DNA of 58,146 bases, the filler included, from Deltaproteobacteria bacterium (lineage in GTDB: Bacteria > CG2-30-53-67), in the NCBI GenBank assembly GCA_013151235.1. It is 4 parts of 4 records of this genome, joined end to end, with 100 filler letters (N's around TTAATTAATTAA, not from the genome) between each part and the next. Parts side by side here need not be neighbours in the genome. Positions count along the whole stretch, not along the records: positions 50,497 to 54,730 come from JAADIO010000056.1; 3 more parts are not named here. One strand, given 5' to 3'. The notes under the pieces are model-generated. The model was not told the DNA's origin, did no database searches, and saw only the letters and a program-made list of their open reading frames with translations. Positions 6,538-54,830 of this stretch are shown piece after piece. Positions within the stretch are counted from its first letter, which is position 1. The number at the start of each line of letters is the position of its first letter. The position numbers were made by a program, and so were the translations under genes.

Positions 6538-7362
6538 TTACTCCCCTTCTTTGACCTGTTCGCCGGTCATCCCGTACCGTCGTTCCCGTGTCCGGTAATC
6601 GAGTAGTGCTTCGAGAAACGCCTTTCGTTTAAAATCAGGCCAGAGGATGGGCGTAAAATAGAGTTCCGTATAGACCGACTGCCAGGTCAGAAAATTGCTG
6701 ATCCGCTGCTCTCCGCTGGTTCGGATGATCAGGTCCGGGTCGGGACAGTCCCTCGTATACATCCGGCTGCTCAGGACCGCTTCATCGATCTCCGACGGTC
6801 GAATCCGCCCGTCGGCCACGTCCTGAGCCAGGGACCGCACCGCGTCGAGGATTTCAGCCCGTCCGCCATAGCTTAAGGCAAGATTCAGGGTCATGACCTG
6901 ATTCGCCGACGTCTCCCGCTCGGCCCAATGAAGAAGTTCCTGAATATTCTCCGGCAGGTCGTGAATCCTGCCGATGGCCTGAAAACGGATTCCATTCTCC
7001 TGCATCACCCGCACTTTTCTTTTGATATATTCCTTGAGGATCCCCATGAGCGCCCGCACCTCGGTCCGGGGCCGCTGCCAGTTTTCCACGGAAAAGGCAT
7101 AGAGCGTGAGAACCCGGACACCGGTTTCCCGGGCACAGGCGACCACTTCGTCGACGGAACGAACCCCTTCCTTATGCCCCATGATGCGGGGAATGGAACG
7201 TGCCCCGGCCCATCGGCCATTGCCGTCCATGATGATGGCGACATGGTAGGGAAGAGCGGCAGGATCAATCTGCCGAAAGAGTTCCGGATAGAGTTTTGCC
7301 GTTTCGTTGCATTCTTCCGCAGGAGGCAGGTTTTTGTTCATCGGGCTGGTTGTATCCGTCAT
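6538..7362 (-). CDS. uppS: Undecaprenyl diphosphate synthase
   Basis: HVAIIMDGNGRW, AFSVENW, IRTSGEQRISNF. Confidence 0.96.
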   Translation of the reverse strand: MTDTTSPMNKNLPPAEECNETAKLYPELFRQIDPAALPYHVAIIMDGNGRWAGARSIPRIMGHKEGVRSVDEVVACARETGVRVLTLYAFSVENWQRPRTEVRALMGILKEYIKRKVRVMQENGIRFQAIGRIHDLPENIQELLHWAERETSANQVMTLNLALSYGGRAEILDAVRSLAQDVADGRIRPSEIDEAVLSSRMYTRDCPDPDLIIRTSGEQRISNFLTWQSVYTELYFTPILWPDFKRKAFLEALLDYRTRERRYGMTGEQVKEGE

Positions 7363-7392
7363 GGGATGACATCATTTTGCAAGGGGACCTTC

Positions 7393-7950
7393 TCAGACCG
7401 TCATGACATCCTCTTCCTTGGTCTGGAGGACCTGATCCGCTTTCTTGACAAACCGGTCGGTCAGTTTCTGAATCTCATCCAGGATCTTATGGAGGGCATC
7501 CTCGGTAATCTCTTTCTCTTTTTCCATCTTCTTGAGCTTGTCATTCGCCTCTTTCCTGGCATGCCGGACCGCCACCCGGCAGTCTTCGGCCATATTCCGG
7601 ATTACCTTGACAATCTCCCGACGGCGCTCTTCCGTTAATTCCGGAATGGTAATCCGAATCACCTTCCCGTCGTTGGATGGGGTCAACCCCATGTCGGACG
7701 AAAGAATGGCCTTCTCGATCGACTTCAACGCAGACGCATCCCAGGGCTGAATAACAATCGTCCGGCTCTCCGGGACGGAGAGAGTCGCCATCTGGTTCAG
7801 ACGGGTCGCCGTCCCGTAGTAGTCGACCAGGATATGGTCCAGAATCCCCGTTGATGCGCGTCCCGTCCGAATCCGGGCATATTCTTTTCTCAAGGCTTCG
7901 ATCGCCTTCTCCATTTGTGCCTCGGTCTGTGATTTCAATTCCGCAATCAT
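7393..7950 (-). CDS. frr: Ribosome recycling factor
   Basis: [19 protein letters not shown]; synteny. Confidence 0.97.
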
Positions 7951-8672
7951 GAGTCCCCTCCCTGTACCAGGGTCCCGATCCGCTCACCGGTCAGGACCTT
8001 GTGGATGTTCCCTTCTTTCATCATATTAAAAACGATGATCGGAAGGTTATTGTCCATACATAAAGAGATCGCCGTGGCATCCATCACTTTCAGACGTTTC
8101 TGCAGGACATCGATGTAGGTCACCTCCGGCAGAAACTCCGCATGATCATCCTTCATCGGATCCGCCGTATAAACACCATCCACCTTGGTCGCCTTCATGA
8201 TGACATCGGCATTGATTTCCATGGCCCGGAGAGCCGCCGCCGTATCGGTGGTAAAGAAAGGATTGCCCGTTCCGCCGCCAAAGATCACCACACGCCCTTT
8301 TTCCAGGTGACGGGCCGCCCGCCGCCGGATGTAGGGCTCGGCCAGTTCCTTCATCTCCAGAGCCGAGAGAACCCGCGTATCGACCCCCACATGCTCCAGA
8401 ACATTCTGAAGGGCCAGGGCATTAAGCATAGTCGCCAACATCCCCATATAATCCCCCGTGGCCCGGTCCATCCCCTGGGCCACACCCGAGATCCCCCGGA
8501 AGATATTCCCGCCGCCGATCACCAGCGCAATCTCGACATGAAGCGACGTAATCTTCTTGACTTCCTCGGCAATGGTCTTCAGGGTCCCGGGATCGATCCC
8601 GTAGGCCTGTTGCCCCATCAGGGCCTCCCCGCTCAGTTTGAGCAGGACCCTCTTGTATTTCAGTTCAGCCAT
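7947..8672 (-). CDS. pyrH: UMP kinase
   Basis: [27 protein letters not shown]. Confidence 0.98.
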
Positions 8673-47833: not shown

Positions 47834-49057
47834 TTATTCGCCGGTGGCAGCCTTGTGCAGTTTAATCTCCACCTTCTCCGTCAAGGAGGCATAATAGGCA
47901 CGAAGGATCTTCAGGACTTCAGGACGGCTGAAGTGATCCGGAACATCATCCCCTTCCGAAAGCATCTTGCGAAGCTTTGTCCCGGAGAGCAACATCCGGT
48001 CTTCCTTGCCGTGACAGCAAGTCCGCATGGAAGCCATCCCGTCACACTTGGTGCAGTAAAAAGTCCAGTCGATTTTAAGCGGCTGAGTCTCCAATGCCCC
48101 CTTGGGAATTTCGTCAAAGATATGATGTGCATCAAAGGCACCGTAGTAATCGCCCACTCCGGCATGATCACGGCCGACAATCAGATGGCTGCAACCATAG
48201 TTCTGACGGAAGAGTGCATGAAGCAGGGCCTCTCTCGGTCCGGCATAGCGCATATCGAGGGGATACCCCGCCTGGATGACGGTGTCGTCCACAAAATACT
48301 TGTCAATCAGGGTCCCGATCGCCTCGCTCCGGACATCGGCCGGAATATCTCCCGGTTTCAGTTTTCCTAAAAGCTGATGAATCAGGACACCATCACAGAT
48401 CTCGATGGCAATCTTGGCAAGATACTCGTGTGACCGGTGCATCGGATTCCGGGTCTGGAAGGCGGCAACGGTACTCCATCCTTTTTCGTCGAAGATCTTG
48501 CGGGTTTCCGCCGGCGTCATGTAGACCCCTTTGTACTTCGTCGGGAAATCTCCTTCGCTGAAGACCTTGACCGGTCCGGCGAGATTGACATCGCCCTGGT
48601 CCATCACCTTCGCCACACCGGGGTGCTCCATCTCCGTCGTTTTAAAGACATGCTGACACTCGAATTCCTTATCGGTTCGGGTCATGGCATACTTCTCATT
48701 GACCACCATGGTCCCCATCAACTCGCCGCTCTCGTCATCGACAAGAGCAACTTCCTCCCCCTCTTGGAGGGTATCGGCTTGTTCTTTACTGGTGGAGAGA
48801 GTAATCGGAATCGGCCAGAAGAGTCCGTCTGCCATGGCGAAATTTTCACAGACCCCTTTCCAGTCCGCCTTCCCCATAAAACCATTCAGCGGCGTAAACC
48901 CGCCGATACCGAGCATGATCAGATCGCCCGTTTCCCGTGAACTGATCCGGATCTGGGTCAGCGATTTTGCATTTTCCTTTGCCTTGGCAAGCTCATCCCC
49001 CTGAAGCAGCAGGGGTTTCAGTCCTTGACCACCGTGTGGCTGTACTAACTTCGACAT
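47834..49057 (-). CDS. sat: Sulfate adenylyltransferase (dissimilatory type)
   Basis: [37 protein letters not shown]. Confidence 0.96.
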
Positions 49058-49083
49058 ACCTTTCCTCCTTATCATAAATGTTT

Positions 49084-49248: not shown

Positions 49249-50394
49249 CTACTGCCGATGACTCATCTTGGCATAAACCAGCGCCGTCGTCCGGTAAAAA
49301 AGATGGGCGAATTTCGAATAGGGCGCATAGGCAAAGAGATAAAAAACAAGCATCAGATGAACAAAATAGGTCAGCTTTGCCACGAAATTCGGATCATGAT
49401 TGTCGACCCCCATATACCGGAAGATCTGCGCAAGCAAACCGGTGATCCCCACGAGGAGTACAACGGTCAGAAACCCCCAGTCAAAATAGGTTCCCAAGCC
49501 GGACTTCTCGTCCTTGGCCTTCCGGTTGAGATAGAGCAAACCGGCACCCACAATGAGCGCAACCGCACTGATATTCCCGATAAATTTCATCGCCATGAAG
49601 AGCATTTTCCCGAAGAGCGTTTCTTCTCCGGTAAAATACATGATGATAAAACCGAGGGTCGTGGTCACAGCCAGACCGATGAAGGCATAAAGTGTCAACT
49701 GGTGTGCCGTGGCCCGCTCCCGATTGATATCGCACTCCTTGAACTTGGAATGCGCCAGAACTTCCACAATGACATCCTTCAATCCGCTGATCAAGCTGCC
49801 CGAAGGCTGCTCCGGGGAATGTGCCTTCATATCGGCCCACATATTCGTAATCCCTTTGAATGCAGACCAGAGTGCAAAGAGTGCCGCAGAACTAAAGATG
49901 ATATCGACCAGCCAGGTGTTGATAAAGGTTCCGAATGCGCCCTTGTGCATCAGATGGGGGGGGAGGGCCTTGTTCAGCCCCGGCGTCGCCAGGGCGGCAA
50001 GAAAGAGAATCACGGCCGGAATAGCCAGGATCTTCAGAAGCTGACTTTTGTCGTTGACCGCCCGTGCGAAAAACTTCACCGGCGCATAATGCTGGATCGC
50101 CTGTTTCCGCACCGCCCCCAGGACCTCTCCGGGTTTGGCCCCGCGGGGGCAATAAGTCGTGCAGTCTCCGCAGTGATGACAGAGCCAGATATCCGGATCG
50201 GAGACAAGTTTGTCCTTTAGTCCCCATCCGGCCCAGATCATCTCTTTACGGGGAAAAGGTCTGTCGTCCGGAGACTGCGGGCAGATCACCGAGCAGGTCG
50301 CACACTGGTAGCACTGTTTCAGTGTATCTCCGCCGGATTCTTTCAATTCCCGAATAAAATTCAGGTCCGGTTTTACCATCACTGTATCGGCCAT
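49249..50394 (-). CDS. qmoC: Quinone-interacting membrane oxidoreductase subunit C
   Basis: CYQCATCSVICP and CHHCGDCTTYCP ferredoxin motifs, PFPRKEM, cytochrome b-like TMs ending PYSKFAHLFYR. Confidence 0.92.
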   Translation of the reverse strand: MADTVMVKPDLNFIRELKESGGDTLKQCYQCATCSVICPQSPDDRPFPRKEMIWAGWGLKDKLVSDPDIWLCHHCGDCTTYCPRGAKPGEVLGAVRKQAIQHYAPVKFFARAVNDKSQLLKILAIPAVILFLAALATPGLNKALPPHLMHKGAFGTFINTWLVDIIFSSAALFALWSAFKGITNMWADMKAHSPEQPSGSLISGLKDVIVEVLAHSKFKECDINRERATAHQLTLYAFIGLAVTTTLGFIIMYFTGEETLFGKMLFMAMKFIGNISAVALIVGAGLLYLNRKAKDEKSGLGTYFDWGFLTVVLLVGITGLLAQIFRYMGVDNHDPNFVAKLTYFVHLMLVFYLFAYAPYSKFAHLFYRTTALVYAKMSHRQ

Positions 50395-50396
50395 TC

Positions 50397-50496
50397 NNNN
50401 NNNNNNNNNNNNNNNNNNNNNNNNNNNNNNNNNNNNNNNNTTAATTAATTAANNNNNNNNNNNNNNNNNNNNNNNNNNNNNNNNNNNNNNNNNNNN
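50397..50496. other. Artificial contig linker
   Basis: N runs flanking TTAATTAATTAA. Confidence 0.97.
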
Positions 50497-50498
50497 TG

Positions 50499-50861
50499 AC
50501 CCGGTTTTACAGTTTTACCCTGGCACTGCAGAAAGAGGGGCGGTCGAGTACCTGCTCCCTGGGGGACCCGGATATCAGTTCCTGCCAGATCCGTTACAAC
50601 GGCCAGATGGTCCAGTGCAGCTACGCCATGGCCCTGCCGAAACCGAATAATATCTTCGAGCATGGCCTTGTCGGGGCATGGCAGCGCCTGCCTATATTCA
50701 AGAAGTTTCTCGACCCTGAGCGGCTCGAAGGCAAATGCGGCGCCTGTGAAAGAAAAAAGGTCTGCAAAGGAGGATGCCGGGCACTTGCCTATTTACAGGG
50801 GCGGGGGGAATGGGCTGAAGATCCGATCTGCCCCCATACACCCGTATTGCAGGAGGTATGA
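50499..50861 (+). CDS. C-terminal SPASM domain of a radical SAM enzyme (5' truncated)
   Basis: Frame open from the contig edge: CSLG..C.IRYNGQMVQC..NIFE..LVGAW..GKCGACERKKVCKGGCRALA..EDPIC. Confidence 0.88.
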   Translation, partial: TRFYSFTLALQKEGRSSTCSLGDPDISSCQIRYNGQMVQCSYAMALPKPNNIFEHGLVGAWQRLPIFKKFLDPERLEGKCGACERKKVCKGGCRALAYLQGRGEWAEDPICPHTPVLQEV

Positions 50862-50862
50862 C

Positions 50863-51069
50863 ATGACCGATCCCAAGATAAGGCAATGGATAAAACCGGA
50901 AATTCGTGACCTTGACATTACTCGAGGGAAAAAGTGCGAGCCCAAAGACGGCGGACCGGCAGGACGGCCATGTGGACCACACACACCGGGTCATCCCGCC
51001 GGGCCCGTCGGGCCACCCCCATTATGCGGACCTAAAAAACATCGCGGACCCGGCCCGAAATTCAGTTGA
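50863..51069 (+). CDS. Putative RiPP precursor peptide (68 aa)
   Basis: AGGAGG RBS at 50851-50856; leader WIKPEIRDL..T-R-G; Gly/Pro-rich core with three Cys. Confidence 0.72.
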   Translation: MTDPKIRQWIKPEIRDLDITRGKKCEPKDGGPAGRPCGPHTPGHPAGPVGPPPLCGPKKHRGPGPKFS

Positions 51070-51073
51070 TCCG

Positions 51074-51673
51074 ATGCCTCTTGATCGTTTTCTTCAGTGG
51101 GGGACCAAAACGCGGGACCGGAATTTCCCGGGAAGAGTCTTTGTAGGCGTGCTCTACCGGATCCTTCTTTACGGAATTTTCGATCCTCTTCTCTGGTTTT
51201 TCTACCGATTACGGTTCGCCCTTTCCGGTCAAGGATTGCAAACCTTCCGGCAACCCCGATTCCGCCTCCTCCGGGAGATCCGCAGCCGCTGCCCCCGCCC
51301 GATTCTGTTGCGTCTCTGGCTCCGTTCACATCCGGATCTCTGCGGCGCCTCCGGCTGGGTCGGCCTCCAGACGGCAATCCATACACTGAAGAAACGAACA
51401 AACACACTCCCCTGGCTCCTCCCCGAGGAAACCCTCCTGGCCCACTGTCTCGACTGCAAGGGGTTCGCCGTTCTCTTCTCGAGCCTGCTGACGATTTGCG
51501 GGTTCAATAACGAATTGTGGATCGGTCTTGCCGGAGACGGTGAAAACGGGCACGCCTGGGTTGTAATTGAAGACGGGGGGGGGCGAATTGCCGTGGACCA
51601 AATGAATGGTCTGGGGGTTCCTGAAGCGGTCTACCTCAAAGAACACCGTTTCGCGATGACGATCTCCCTCTGA
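51074..51673 (+). CDS. Transglutaminase-fold Cys protease (lasso B2-like leader peptidase candidate)
   Basis: CLDCKGFAVLFSSLL..G..LWIG..GHAWV..VD, a candidate Cys-His-Asp triad; starts 4 nt after the precursor stop. Confidence 0.72.
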   Translation: MPLDRFLQWGTKTRDRNFPGRVFVGVLYRILLYGIFDPLLWFFYRLRFALSGQGLQTFRQPRFRLLREIRSRCPRPILLRLWLRSHPDLCGASGWVGLQTAIHTLKKRTNTLPWLLPEETLLAHCLDCKGFAVLFSSLLTICGFNNELWIGLAGDGENGHAWVVIEDGGGRIAVDQMNGLGVPEAVYLKEHRFAMTISL

Positions 51674-51773
51674 GGCCCCACGACAATCCTTTCCGGTTCA
51701 CAATCATACAACAATCACGGCATACTGGAAGACAAAGTCTGATTGCCGTCATCACTCACGAAATCCCGACGAC

Positions 51774-52677
51774 TCAGGAGGACGTTTTTTTCACCTCTCC
51801 CGTTCGTCCGAAAGGACCGATGGTCTTGTCCCCGTACCGGATCAGCAGACCGCCTGCATTTCCGATATCCAGTTTCATCGATTCAACCATACTAACCTGA
51901 AGGTCCTCCCCCTTCCGGAGCGTGACGTCATAGTCCTTCTCTCCATCCACATTTACGGACAGCCAGGTCAGGTCCCCGGCAACCAGGTGAATGACGAGAG
52001 GAGCGGGAAGGGCCTTTTGCCGGGAAACGGGTTTCGGGGAGGAATCGGCCGCAGACGGAACCGACCGAGGCCTTCGGTGTCGTCCCGGCAGGGGACTGCA
52101 ACTCCCTGACCGGGAGATTCTCGCCATCTTCAGCCTCCGGTCCCGCAGTCATCGTCGGAGACGTCTCGTTTTTCTGCTCCGTCGCAGGGAACATCTCCTC
52201 AAAACCGACCTTGAACCGGTCTTTGGGCGAAATTTCCGGGTGGAACCAGAATCGAATCCCGAGATAGAGAAGCCCCCCGAGGAGCAGCAGGATCAGGAAA
52301 CCCCAGATCCACAGAGAACGGCCCCGGACCGGCTTCGCATCCATATTGGAAGAATCCTTTTGTGAAGCCGGATGCGACACGGCAGGTTCCGGCCCTTTTT
52401 GATACTCATGGTACCGAAGAAGCGCTTCATCAGGATCAAGACCGATATACCGGGCATAACTGCGAATGAACCCCTTGATAAAAACCGGGGCGGGAAGACG
52501 ATTTTCGTTATCCTCTTCCAGTGCCTCCAGGTATCGGAAACTGACCTTGGTGTCATCGGCGATCTCCCGCAGAGAGATCTCCCGCAGTTCCCGTTCCCGC
52601 TTCAGGTACTCTCCAAAAGAGGGTTTTGAAGCACCTTCCGTAATCTTACGCAACAACCGCTGTTCCTTCTTTTCCAT
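51774..52677 (-). CDS. rodZ: RodZ-like HTH / TM / DUF4115 protein (apparent frameshift near 52050-52120)
   Basis: FGEYLKRERE..ALEED..FIKGFIRSYARYIGLD in one frame; TWLSVNVDG..IGNAGG in the next. Confidence 0.8.
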
Positions 52678-54730: not shown

Positions 54731-54830
54731 NNNNNNNNNNNNNNNNNNNNNNNNNNNNNNNNNNNNNNNNNNNNTTAATTAATTAANNNNNNNNNNNNNN
54801 NNNNNNNNNNNNNNNNNNNNNNNNNNNNNN
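54731..54830. other. Artificial contig linker
   Basis: N runs flanking TTAATTAATTAA. Confidence 0.97.

Follow-up and report, generated by a model that had tools for sequence, protein, structure and literature searches.

A probable RiPP operon pairing a radical SAM/SPASM enzyme with lasso-type leader handling in Nitrospirota and other uncultured phyla

We analysed positions 50499-51673 of a 58,146-nucleotide stretch of DNA (the window) from a Deltaproteobacteria bacterium assembly (GCA_013151235.1), where three closely spaced genes on the plus strand encode the end of a radical S-adenosylmethionine (rSAM) enzyme with a SPASM domain, a small peptide, and a transglutaminase-fold cysteine peptidase (TG). 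We consider it likely that these genes are the 3' end of an operon for a ribosomally synthesised and post-translationally modified peptide (RiPP), in which rSAM modification is combined with leader handling of the lasso type. The window consists of joined contigs; an artificial linker, read from the sequence as N / TTAATTAATTAA / N, fills positions 50397-50496, and the cluster sits at the start of the contig that follows, C57 of the source genome (G000), which is 4234 bp long and begins at 50497. Three plus-strand genes with gaps of 1 and 4 nt had been predicted here, and this arrangement was borne out. The first gene (50499..50861) is an rSAM/SPASM maturase fragment of 120 aa with an open 5' end, 81% identical to residues 219-336 of the rSAM protein in a genome of the same genus (G001). 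Its predicted SPASM C-terminus, with CGAC-x5-C-x3-C and DPIC, is present and passes the NCBIfam model TIGR04085 (36.6 bits, cut-off 27); the expected Pfam SPASM match fell short (15.7, cut-off 21.5). One nucleotide separates its TGA stop codon (50859-50861) from the ATG of the 68-aa precursor ORF (50863..51069), which is preceded by an AGGAGG ribosome-binding site (50849..50854) 8 nt ahead of this ATG. Four nucleotides after the precursor stop codon follows the TG gene (199 aa, 51074..51673; C57:578-1174 corresponds to window 51074-51670). The rSAM-precursor-TG order is the same in relatives, which puts the arrangement beyond chance. Scanning 50499-52000 for promoters and terminators gave nothing relevant to the operon on the plus strand. 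In a public protein collection, the TG of the window is listed with 255 aa (P0004), equivalent to a GTG start at 50906 that overlaps the precursor ORF in another frame. Since 15 of 19 TG relatives are 199-201 aa long, this automated call is probably too long, and it probably hid the precursor gene.

The precursor has a leader of approximately residues 1-21 and a core from about residue 22, with three Cys and a C-terminal Phe-Ser. We scanned 20 loci of the rSAM clade described below for ORFs of 35-100 aa within 600 bp of the rSAM gene and on its strand, demanding a Met at most 25 residues before [WY]xxPx[ILVMFYA] and leaving the C-terminus unconstrained. The original prediction would have been refuted if homologous rSAM/peptidase pairs lacked a conserved small ORF with the WxxPxI leader; instead, an orthologous ORF, the single motif-bearing one just downstream of the rSAM gene, was found in 19 of the 20 loci. 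A second candidate in locus L106, which lies inside the rSAM gene, has no Cys and ends in Ile, was set aside as spurious, and the high-G+C locus L034 gave no candidate in the same scan. All 19 retained ORFs end in Ser, compared with 276 of 2476 (11%) of all ORFs of at least 40 aa in the same loci, a contrast that is not a probability because the loci are related to each other. In an alignment of the 19 precursors (window numbering), W9, P12, C37, C55 and S68 are invariant, the terminal Ser being the only invariant Ser of the family, and the first Cys is found in 16. The corresponding window codons are 50935..50937 (Cys25), 50971..50973 (Cys37), 51025..51027 (Cys55) and 51064..51066 (Ser68, the proposed phosphorylation site of an HprK-like kinase, by analogy with PMC8498205, cited throughout from part of its text). 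Many distant members have a core of the form C-N-P-x-[WF]-...-C-...-G-[VI]-P-...-C.

The leader motif, W9-I-K-P12-E-I14 in the window (50887..50904) and WxxPx[ILMY] across the 19 precursors, is of the lasso type. The precursor family had gone unrecognised in the original prediction, but its leader carries the motif [Y/W]xxPx[L/V/I/F/A], which is bound by discrete RiPP recognition elements (RREs) of lasso systems and takes the form WxxPxL in paeninodin-like lasso peptides, as described in sections of Popov et al. (Nat Commun 2026, PMC13381572, likewise cited in part). Of the Gly/Pro/Cys character noted for the peptide, the richness in Gly and Pro is peculiar to the source species, the same-genus relatives being Lys-rich instead. 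The proposed cut after Arg21 is without comparative support, because Thr20-Arg21 is not conserved. The precursor matches no model of mycofactocin (C-terminal GVY) or PQQ (Glu..Tyr), its end being [F/L]-Ser. Both the invariant C-terminal Ser and the HprK-like kinase were absent from the original prediction and are added here.

A search with the rSAM protein of G001 against 5.8 billion clusters returned 21 relatives at 232-773 bits and 37-99% identity, beyond which scores fall to at most 141 bits and identities to at most 33%, with proteins named heme b synthase, NirJ and AhbD-like. In a quick maximum-likelihood tree, which carries a long-branch warning for P0092, P0043 and P0044, the 21 clade rows are split from 42 others by a branch of length 1.69 (SH-aLRT 99). 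Among the 42 is the AhbD-like protein of the source genome itself, encoded on C2 and scoring 446 bits on the AhbD model. Judged from its sequence, the rSAM falls in a clade of its own, made up of 21 protein clusters from several phyla and apart from AhbD and NirJ; the grouping with AhbC, AhbD or NirJ that would have refuted the original prediction is seen neither in the drop in scores nor in the quick tree. Clade members keep CxxxCxxC and seven SPASM Cys, and since CxxxCxxC begins at residue 17 the enzyme has no fused RRE.

Thirteen of the clade loci come from genome_contigs, with the labels Nitrospirota, Candidatus Schekmanbacteria, Zhuqueibacterota, Mcinerneyibacteriota, 'Cytophagia' or unclassified bacterium, and at least three come from metagenomes (L105-L107). 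Among the 13, tblastn detected the HprK-like kinase in nine, PqqD in nine, a PF14907 nucleotidyltransferase in seven and TG in five; several of the misses fall on contigs that end within approximately 1 kb of the rSAM gene. Profile comparison (E 4e-5) added a TG in L033, where DCK, GHA and D line up, and Pfam added a TG-like match in L034 at 27.8 bits (cut-off 26), lying inside an over-long ORF; of the three metagenome loci one has PqqD and two have TG. In locus L026 the rSAM ORF (6818-8020) is longer by some 60 aa at its N-terminus, and neither an HprK-like nor a PqqD gene was found within 7 kb on each side; the locus may carry a reduced variant of the cassette, and a CPBP intramembrane protease gene also lies near the cassette there.

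The complete operon is seen in G001, where the order is CPBP protease, HprK-like kinase, PqqD, rSAM/SPASM (336 aa), precursor and TG. With the G001 proteins as queries, the rSAM C-terminus and TG of the source genome were found on C57, and its CPBP gene (82% identity) and HprK-like gene (70%) both lie at the extreme end of contig C11. The 5' part of the cluster was thus not lost at the contig break, as had been supposed: the CPBP protease and the HprK-like kinase are at a contig end in the same genome. PqqD and the rSAM N-terminus occupy this place in relatives and are therefore the expected content of the gap between C11 and C57, which would span some 0.9-1 kb. At the end of C11 lies an element of some 90 bp (C11:127568-127658), copies of which are found on dozens of contigs and often at contig ends. 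It is probably a REP/MITE-like repeat fragmenting the assembly, and we attribute the break between C11 and C57 to this dispersed repeat. One of its copies lies directly after the HprK-like gene.

Within the family, CPBP is the first gene of the operon (for example L102, on C11 of the source genome, 5823-6479, and L014, 9210-9869). Genera g1 and g4 have the order CPBP-HprK-PqqD-rSAM-precursor-TG and genus g5 has CPBP-PF14907 nucleotidyltransferase-HprK-rSAM-precursor-PqqD-TG, with a convergent ABC-2 exporter next after TG in g4 and g5. Genera g2 and g3 (genomes G003, G004 and G007) have CPBP adjoining TG, and an HprK-rSAM-precursor-PqqD module lies on another contig, PF14907 being detected within it in G004 only. 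All parts are present in 9/9 family genomes. In g3, a short ORF between CPBP and TG (L018 4238-4375 in G007, L021 185-370 in G004) resembles by eye the C-terminus of the HprK-like protein, which suggests that the module was formerly there and was then deleted or moved.

The helper proteins have lasso-type relatives. A profile of 10 PqqD proteins matched the lasso B1 proteins TbiB1 (E 2.7e-13), 9x90 (annotated as 'lasso peptide biosynthesis PqqD family chaperone') and TfuB1 before any true PqqD. The HprK-like proteins keep the His, the GxxGxGKT P-loop and a DE(D/W) motif; among solved proteins they match HPr(Ser) kinase 3tqf best (E 3.4e-4), weakly but in agreement with the sub-threshold match to NCBIfam HprK_rel_A (E 1.3e-10, under the cut-off). 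In phosphorylated lasso peptides, HprK homologues phosphorylate the C-terminal Ser, which is nearly all that the precursors have in common, and a nucleotidyltransferase adds hexose to the phosphate (PMC8498205).

TG carries the motifs DC128KGF, GH160AWV and D175Q, with catalytic-type codons at 51455-51457 (Cys128), 51551-51553 (His160) and 51596-51598 (Asp175), and DCKGF, GHAW and DQ are invariant in 20/20 homologues. It is present in 8/8 other family genomes and in 0/52 more distant genomes sampled. PF13471 (Transglut_core3), the family named in the original prediction, is matched by 19/20 members at E <=0.1 (best 2.1e-5). Aligned with VIA-align, the AlphaFold model (pLDDT 81.6) resembles transglutaminase-like Cys proteases, PNGase, LapG, CPR-C4 and transglutaminases with Z 7-9.7 among the first twenty matches, values that the tool itself describes as middling; of the 39 matches listed at Z >=5, nearly all are transglutaminase- or papain-like, and two are fungal lectins. 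Foldseek against the PDB gave nothing at E <=0.001, the best match being the putative Cys protease 3isr (1.1e-3), and a TG profile against the PDB sequences gave one chance-level match (E 0.48), there being no solved lasso B2 for comparison. The protein has a helical N-terminal extension of about 100 aa, in which the hydrophobic residues 22-40 (Kyte-Doolittle mean 1.75 over 19 residues) form a possible membrane-associated helix. TG adjoins the precursor also in contigs of Schekmanbacteria, Nitrospirae and Mcinerneyibacteriota. Lastly, a predicted complex of TG and PqqD from G001 scored 0.55 (best of three controls 0.01), which was graded as weak support: the mark is reached by 116 of 157 solved complexes and by 2 of 215 mismatched pairs, but those that pass with a score of at most 0.60 comprise just 18 of the solved complexes along with both mismatched pairs. 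Agreement between runs covers at least 81% of contacts, and the partner pLDDT is at least 84; we used our own alignments, so that the benchmark counts hold only roughly and the pass may reflect likeness to solved complexes.

In summary, the idea of a RiPP pathway in which radical SAM chemistry is paired with lasso-style leader removal, put forward in the original prediction, is supported by the conserved small ORF and by the separation of the rSAM from AhbD and NirJ. From the gene content, gene order, conservation, motifs and fold observed here we infer the following chemical steps. Given the lasso-type motif and the fact that its closest solved relatives are lasso B1 proteins, the discrete PqqD would bind the W9xxP12xI14 leader. 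The rSAM/SPASM enzyme, without a fused RRE, would modify the core at Cys37, Cys55 and usually Cys25, most plausibly by thioether cross-links as in sacti- and ranthipeptides; this is the weakest step. The HprK-like P-loop kinase would phosphorylate Ser68, by analogy with paeninodin-type lasso kinases, and in lineages with the PF14907 nucleotidyltransferase the phosphate may next be glycosylated. The Cys128/His160/Asp175 peptidase would remove the leader between residue 19 and Cys25, with the RRE presenting the substrate as lasso B1 does for B2. More speculatively, the ABC-2 exporter, adjacent in sister genera and elsewhere in the source genome, would export the product, and the CPBP protease would give immunity or make a second cut. 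Provided that the operon is a RiPP operon of this kind, we lean somewhat towards phosphorylation of the terminal Ser, and regard the prospect of thioether bridges as about even.

When the substrate of a SPASM maturase has conserved Cys, these are most often thioether donors. This is a prior and not a test, but the two invariant Cys are also the sole invariant core residues besides the last Ser. A possibility that we take seriously, while thinking it unlikely, is that the enzyme makes C-C or C-O cross-links, epimerises residues or acts on the C-terminal Phe-Ser, with the Cys forming disulfides or binding metal. On the sacti- and ranthipeptide maturase models, the clade rSAM proteins all stay far from the cut-offs (PapB 69-89 against 340; StsB 74-90 against 625), MftC and PqqE, the best matches, make C-C bonds, and the penultimate residue of the precursor is Phe or Leu in 18/19 members.

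The same model matches have a bearing on whether the product is a peptide at all. The operon could yield a peptide-derived small molecule or cofactor of the PQQ or mycofactocin kind, for which only the C-terminal [F/L]-Ser or the Cys would matter and the rest of the peptide would be scaffold. Full-length rSAM proteins of the clade score best with MftC (150-158 bits) and PqqE (132-150 bits), the precursor core varies strongly apart from its two or three Cys and the terminal Ser, and a module present in every family genome resembles a housekeeping trait. These scores are far under the cut-offs of 265 for MftC and 381 for PqqE, as are those on AhbD (133-149 against 500) and NirJ (113-120 against 515), and no MftD/E/F- or PqqB/C-like genes were seen among the ORFs scanned. 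In addition, an ABC-2 exporter is adjacent in two genera, and the kinase, the nucleotidyltransferase and the B2-type peptidase are tailoring parts of secreted RiPPs in the portions of PMC8498205 and PMC13381572 cited here. We consider a cofactor product improbable.

TG, in turn, might not be the leader peptidase: it could act with CPBP elsewhere, in envelope- or exopolysaccharide-linked processing or in transamidation, the module having been inserted between the two genes. The adjacency of CPBP and TG in G003, G004 and G007, with the rSAM module on another contig, would fit this, as would the 112-116 bits of CPBP on the myxosortase core-domain model of NCBIfam, which pass the cut-off of 100, the suitability of a transglutaminase fold for transamidation and the lack of a solved lasso B2. 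Against this stand the loci from distant phyla in which TG immediately follows the precursor and no CPBP is present (L024, L030, L033, L106, L107), the tiny size of the TG family (20 clusters in a word-indexed search; 21 representatives at E <=0.001 among 1.84 billion), which was not found in any genome lacking the rSAM clade, PF13471 as the family most commonly matched, and the weak support from the predicted complex with PqqD, which together leave this explanation with little probability.

Several observations weigh against a RiPP operon with lasso-type leader handling as such. In the source genome the PqqD gene and rSAM residues 1-218, and only these, are unassembled. Every family match in the window itself is weak: the window TG is under the Pfam cut-off for PF13471 (14.9 against 26), and the HprK-like protein of the source genome has no NCBIfam match at E <=1e-20. 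The best rSAM model matches, far under their cut-offs, are the cofactor enzymes MftC, PqqE and AhbD. TG is not strictly tied to the module, being unlinked in three of the nine family genomes (G003, G004 and G007), and no TG was found in the available DNA of five clade loci (L025-L028 and L031). A module kept in 9/9 family genomes looks more like housekeeping than like a sporadic antibiotic cluster. In addition, the kinase of LPP, a RiPP system compared below, targets core Ser3 and not a terminal Ser, according to sections of PMC13381572.

The closest known systems share different parts of the cassette. Phosphorylated and phosphoglycosylated lasso clusters such as those of paeninodin and pseudomycoidin have, in the portion of PMC8498205 cited, the WxxPxL-type leader, the discrete B1 (PqqD) RRE, the B2 transglutaminase-fold Cys peptidase, to which TG is the putative counterpart, an HPr-kinase homologue with a conserved C-terminal Ser, a PF14907-type nucleotidyltransferase in many loci, and an ABC exporter. 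Unlike them, the present cassette has a radical SAM/SPASM enzyme instead of the cyclase, invariant core Cys and a TG with an N-terminal extension of about 100 aa, and its hosts are Nitrospirota and other uncultured phyla. A lasso cyclase (Asn-synthetase homologue) was not seen among the cluster ORFs scanned in relatives, the whole genome not having been searched for the cyclase family. The one Asn_synthase protein seen in the source genome, on contig C22, carries a GATase domain and scores 558 bits on an exopolysaccharide (EPS) amidotransferase model and 208 bits on the model for lasso cyclases (cut-off 525). The system for linear polyphosphorylated peptides (LPP; lppAKBSDN) likewise has no cyclase and shares the HprK-like kinase, the discrete RRE, an NTP transferase, a [Y/W]xxP leader and a location in polysaccharide loci. 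Its own features are an SpI (SipW-like) leader peptidase, the leader YxxPxVLxHQxIxFETxxS and core Ser3 phosphorylation, whereas here we find a B2-type peptidase, rSAM/SPASM, core Cys and a terminal Ser (LPP features from sections of PMC13381572). No signal-peptidase family was seen among the cluster ORFs scanned, and the leader has WxxP without HQ..FET. The term 'radical SAM' has no occurrence in the text of the LPP paper (PMC13381572). The present system resembles paeninodin-type lasso and LPP systems in its predicted leader recognition and kinase tailoring, and lasso systems in its predicted leader cutting; having neither cyclase nor SpI peptidase, it is a member of neither.

Sacti- and ranthipeptide systems (PapB, StsB, AlbA) have in common with the cassette an rSAM/SPASM enzyme with a seven-Cys SPASM region and an adjacent Cys-bearing precursor. 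They differ in that here the RRE is discrete and not fused, no equivalog model is passed, and the lasso-type kinase and peptidase are foreign to them. SynChlorMet (ScmC/D/E/F) and HPr-rel-A cassettes of NCBIfam share an HprK-related P-loop protein, a PqqD relative and a PqqE-like rSAM/SPASM, but SynChlorMet has two rSAM proteins and the present system one. Scores on these models are again below the cut-offs (ScmC 16-21 against 125, ScmD 25-36 against 100, ScmF 99-116 against 400, HprK_rel_A 19-41 against 200), and the GeoRSP component models of NCBIfam were not passed either. Our literature search found no paper on SynChlorMet, and the SynChlorMet and HPr-rel-A cassettes are themselves uncharacterised. 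The same search, with subscription journals and the supplementary files of PMC13381572 lying outside it, found no report of an rSAM combined with HprK, B1 and B2.

The surroundings of the cassette are rich in polysaccharide and envelope genes. In L024, L027, L028 and L030, it is flanked on one side by an ExeA-like AAA_22 ATPase and an HD_5/HD-GYP-like protein; the two are fused into 779 aa in L027 and L028, and the flank of L030 shows the HD_5 protein only. The best NCBIfam match of the ExeA-like protein is the XrtA/PEP-CTERM-associated ATPase, at 161-218 bits and thus below the cut-off of 324 (L024 and L027 tested). On the opposite flank of the same four loci lie Wza-like export genes, joined in L027, L028 and L030 by Wzc-like chain-length/tyrosine-kinase genes, and in L031 glycosyltransferase and flippase genes are beside the cassette. 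The source genome has the ABC-2 exporter, HD_5 and ExeA-like genes as a separate block on C72 (L104 4634-8268), and its only PF14907 gene is on C22 (L103), among glycosyltransferases and the EPS-type amidotransferase. LPP clusters lie inside capsular polysaccharide loci, as reported in sections of Popov et al. (PMC13381572).

As to the remainder of the window, positions 1-31205 were placed on contig C42, and a second linker of like kind is seen near 54735-54790; gene neighbourhoods across such joins are artificial. To the left of the first linker, on a contig different from that of the cluster, are two minus-strand ORFs judged by eye, one resembling sulfate adenylyltransferase (sat; 47834-49075) and one a QmoC/HdrC-like membrane iron-sulfur protein (49249-50394), which are consistent with a sulfate-reducing lifestyle. 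Because of the linker at 50397-50496 they are not neighbours of the cluster, and we rejected them as informative about it.

If the operon works as proposed, lasso B1/B2 leader handling, the C-terminal Ser kinase and the nucleotidyltransferase would constitute a portable toolkit, one that can be combined with a wholly different enzyme for modifying the core, in this case a radical SAM/SPASM protein. On this reading the precursor family is defined by simple rules, namely a leader with WxxPxL, two or three Cys and a Ser at the C-terminus, and can therefore be readily mined and tested. The retention of the cassette in every genome of a Nitrospirota family, and its location in exopolysaccharide loci elsewhere, prompts one to ask whether some RiPPs play a structural or regulatory role in envelope biogenesis and are not weapons. 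It is tempting, though rather doubtful at present, to suggest that the cassette represents a new RiPP class, a thioether-bridged peptide with a C-terminal Ser that is phosphorylated, and in many lineages phosphoglycosylated, serving as a conserved component or signal of exopolysaccharide and envelope biogenesis and not as a sporadic antibiotic. If true, this would link the HprK/RRE peptide cassettes, including LPP in the capsule loci of Bacillota, to polysaccharide assembly generally.

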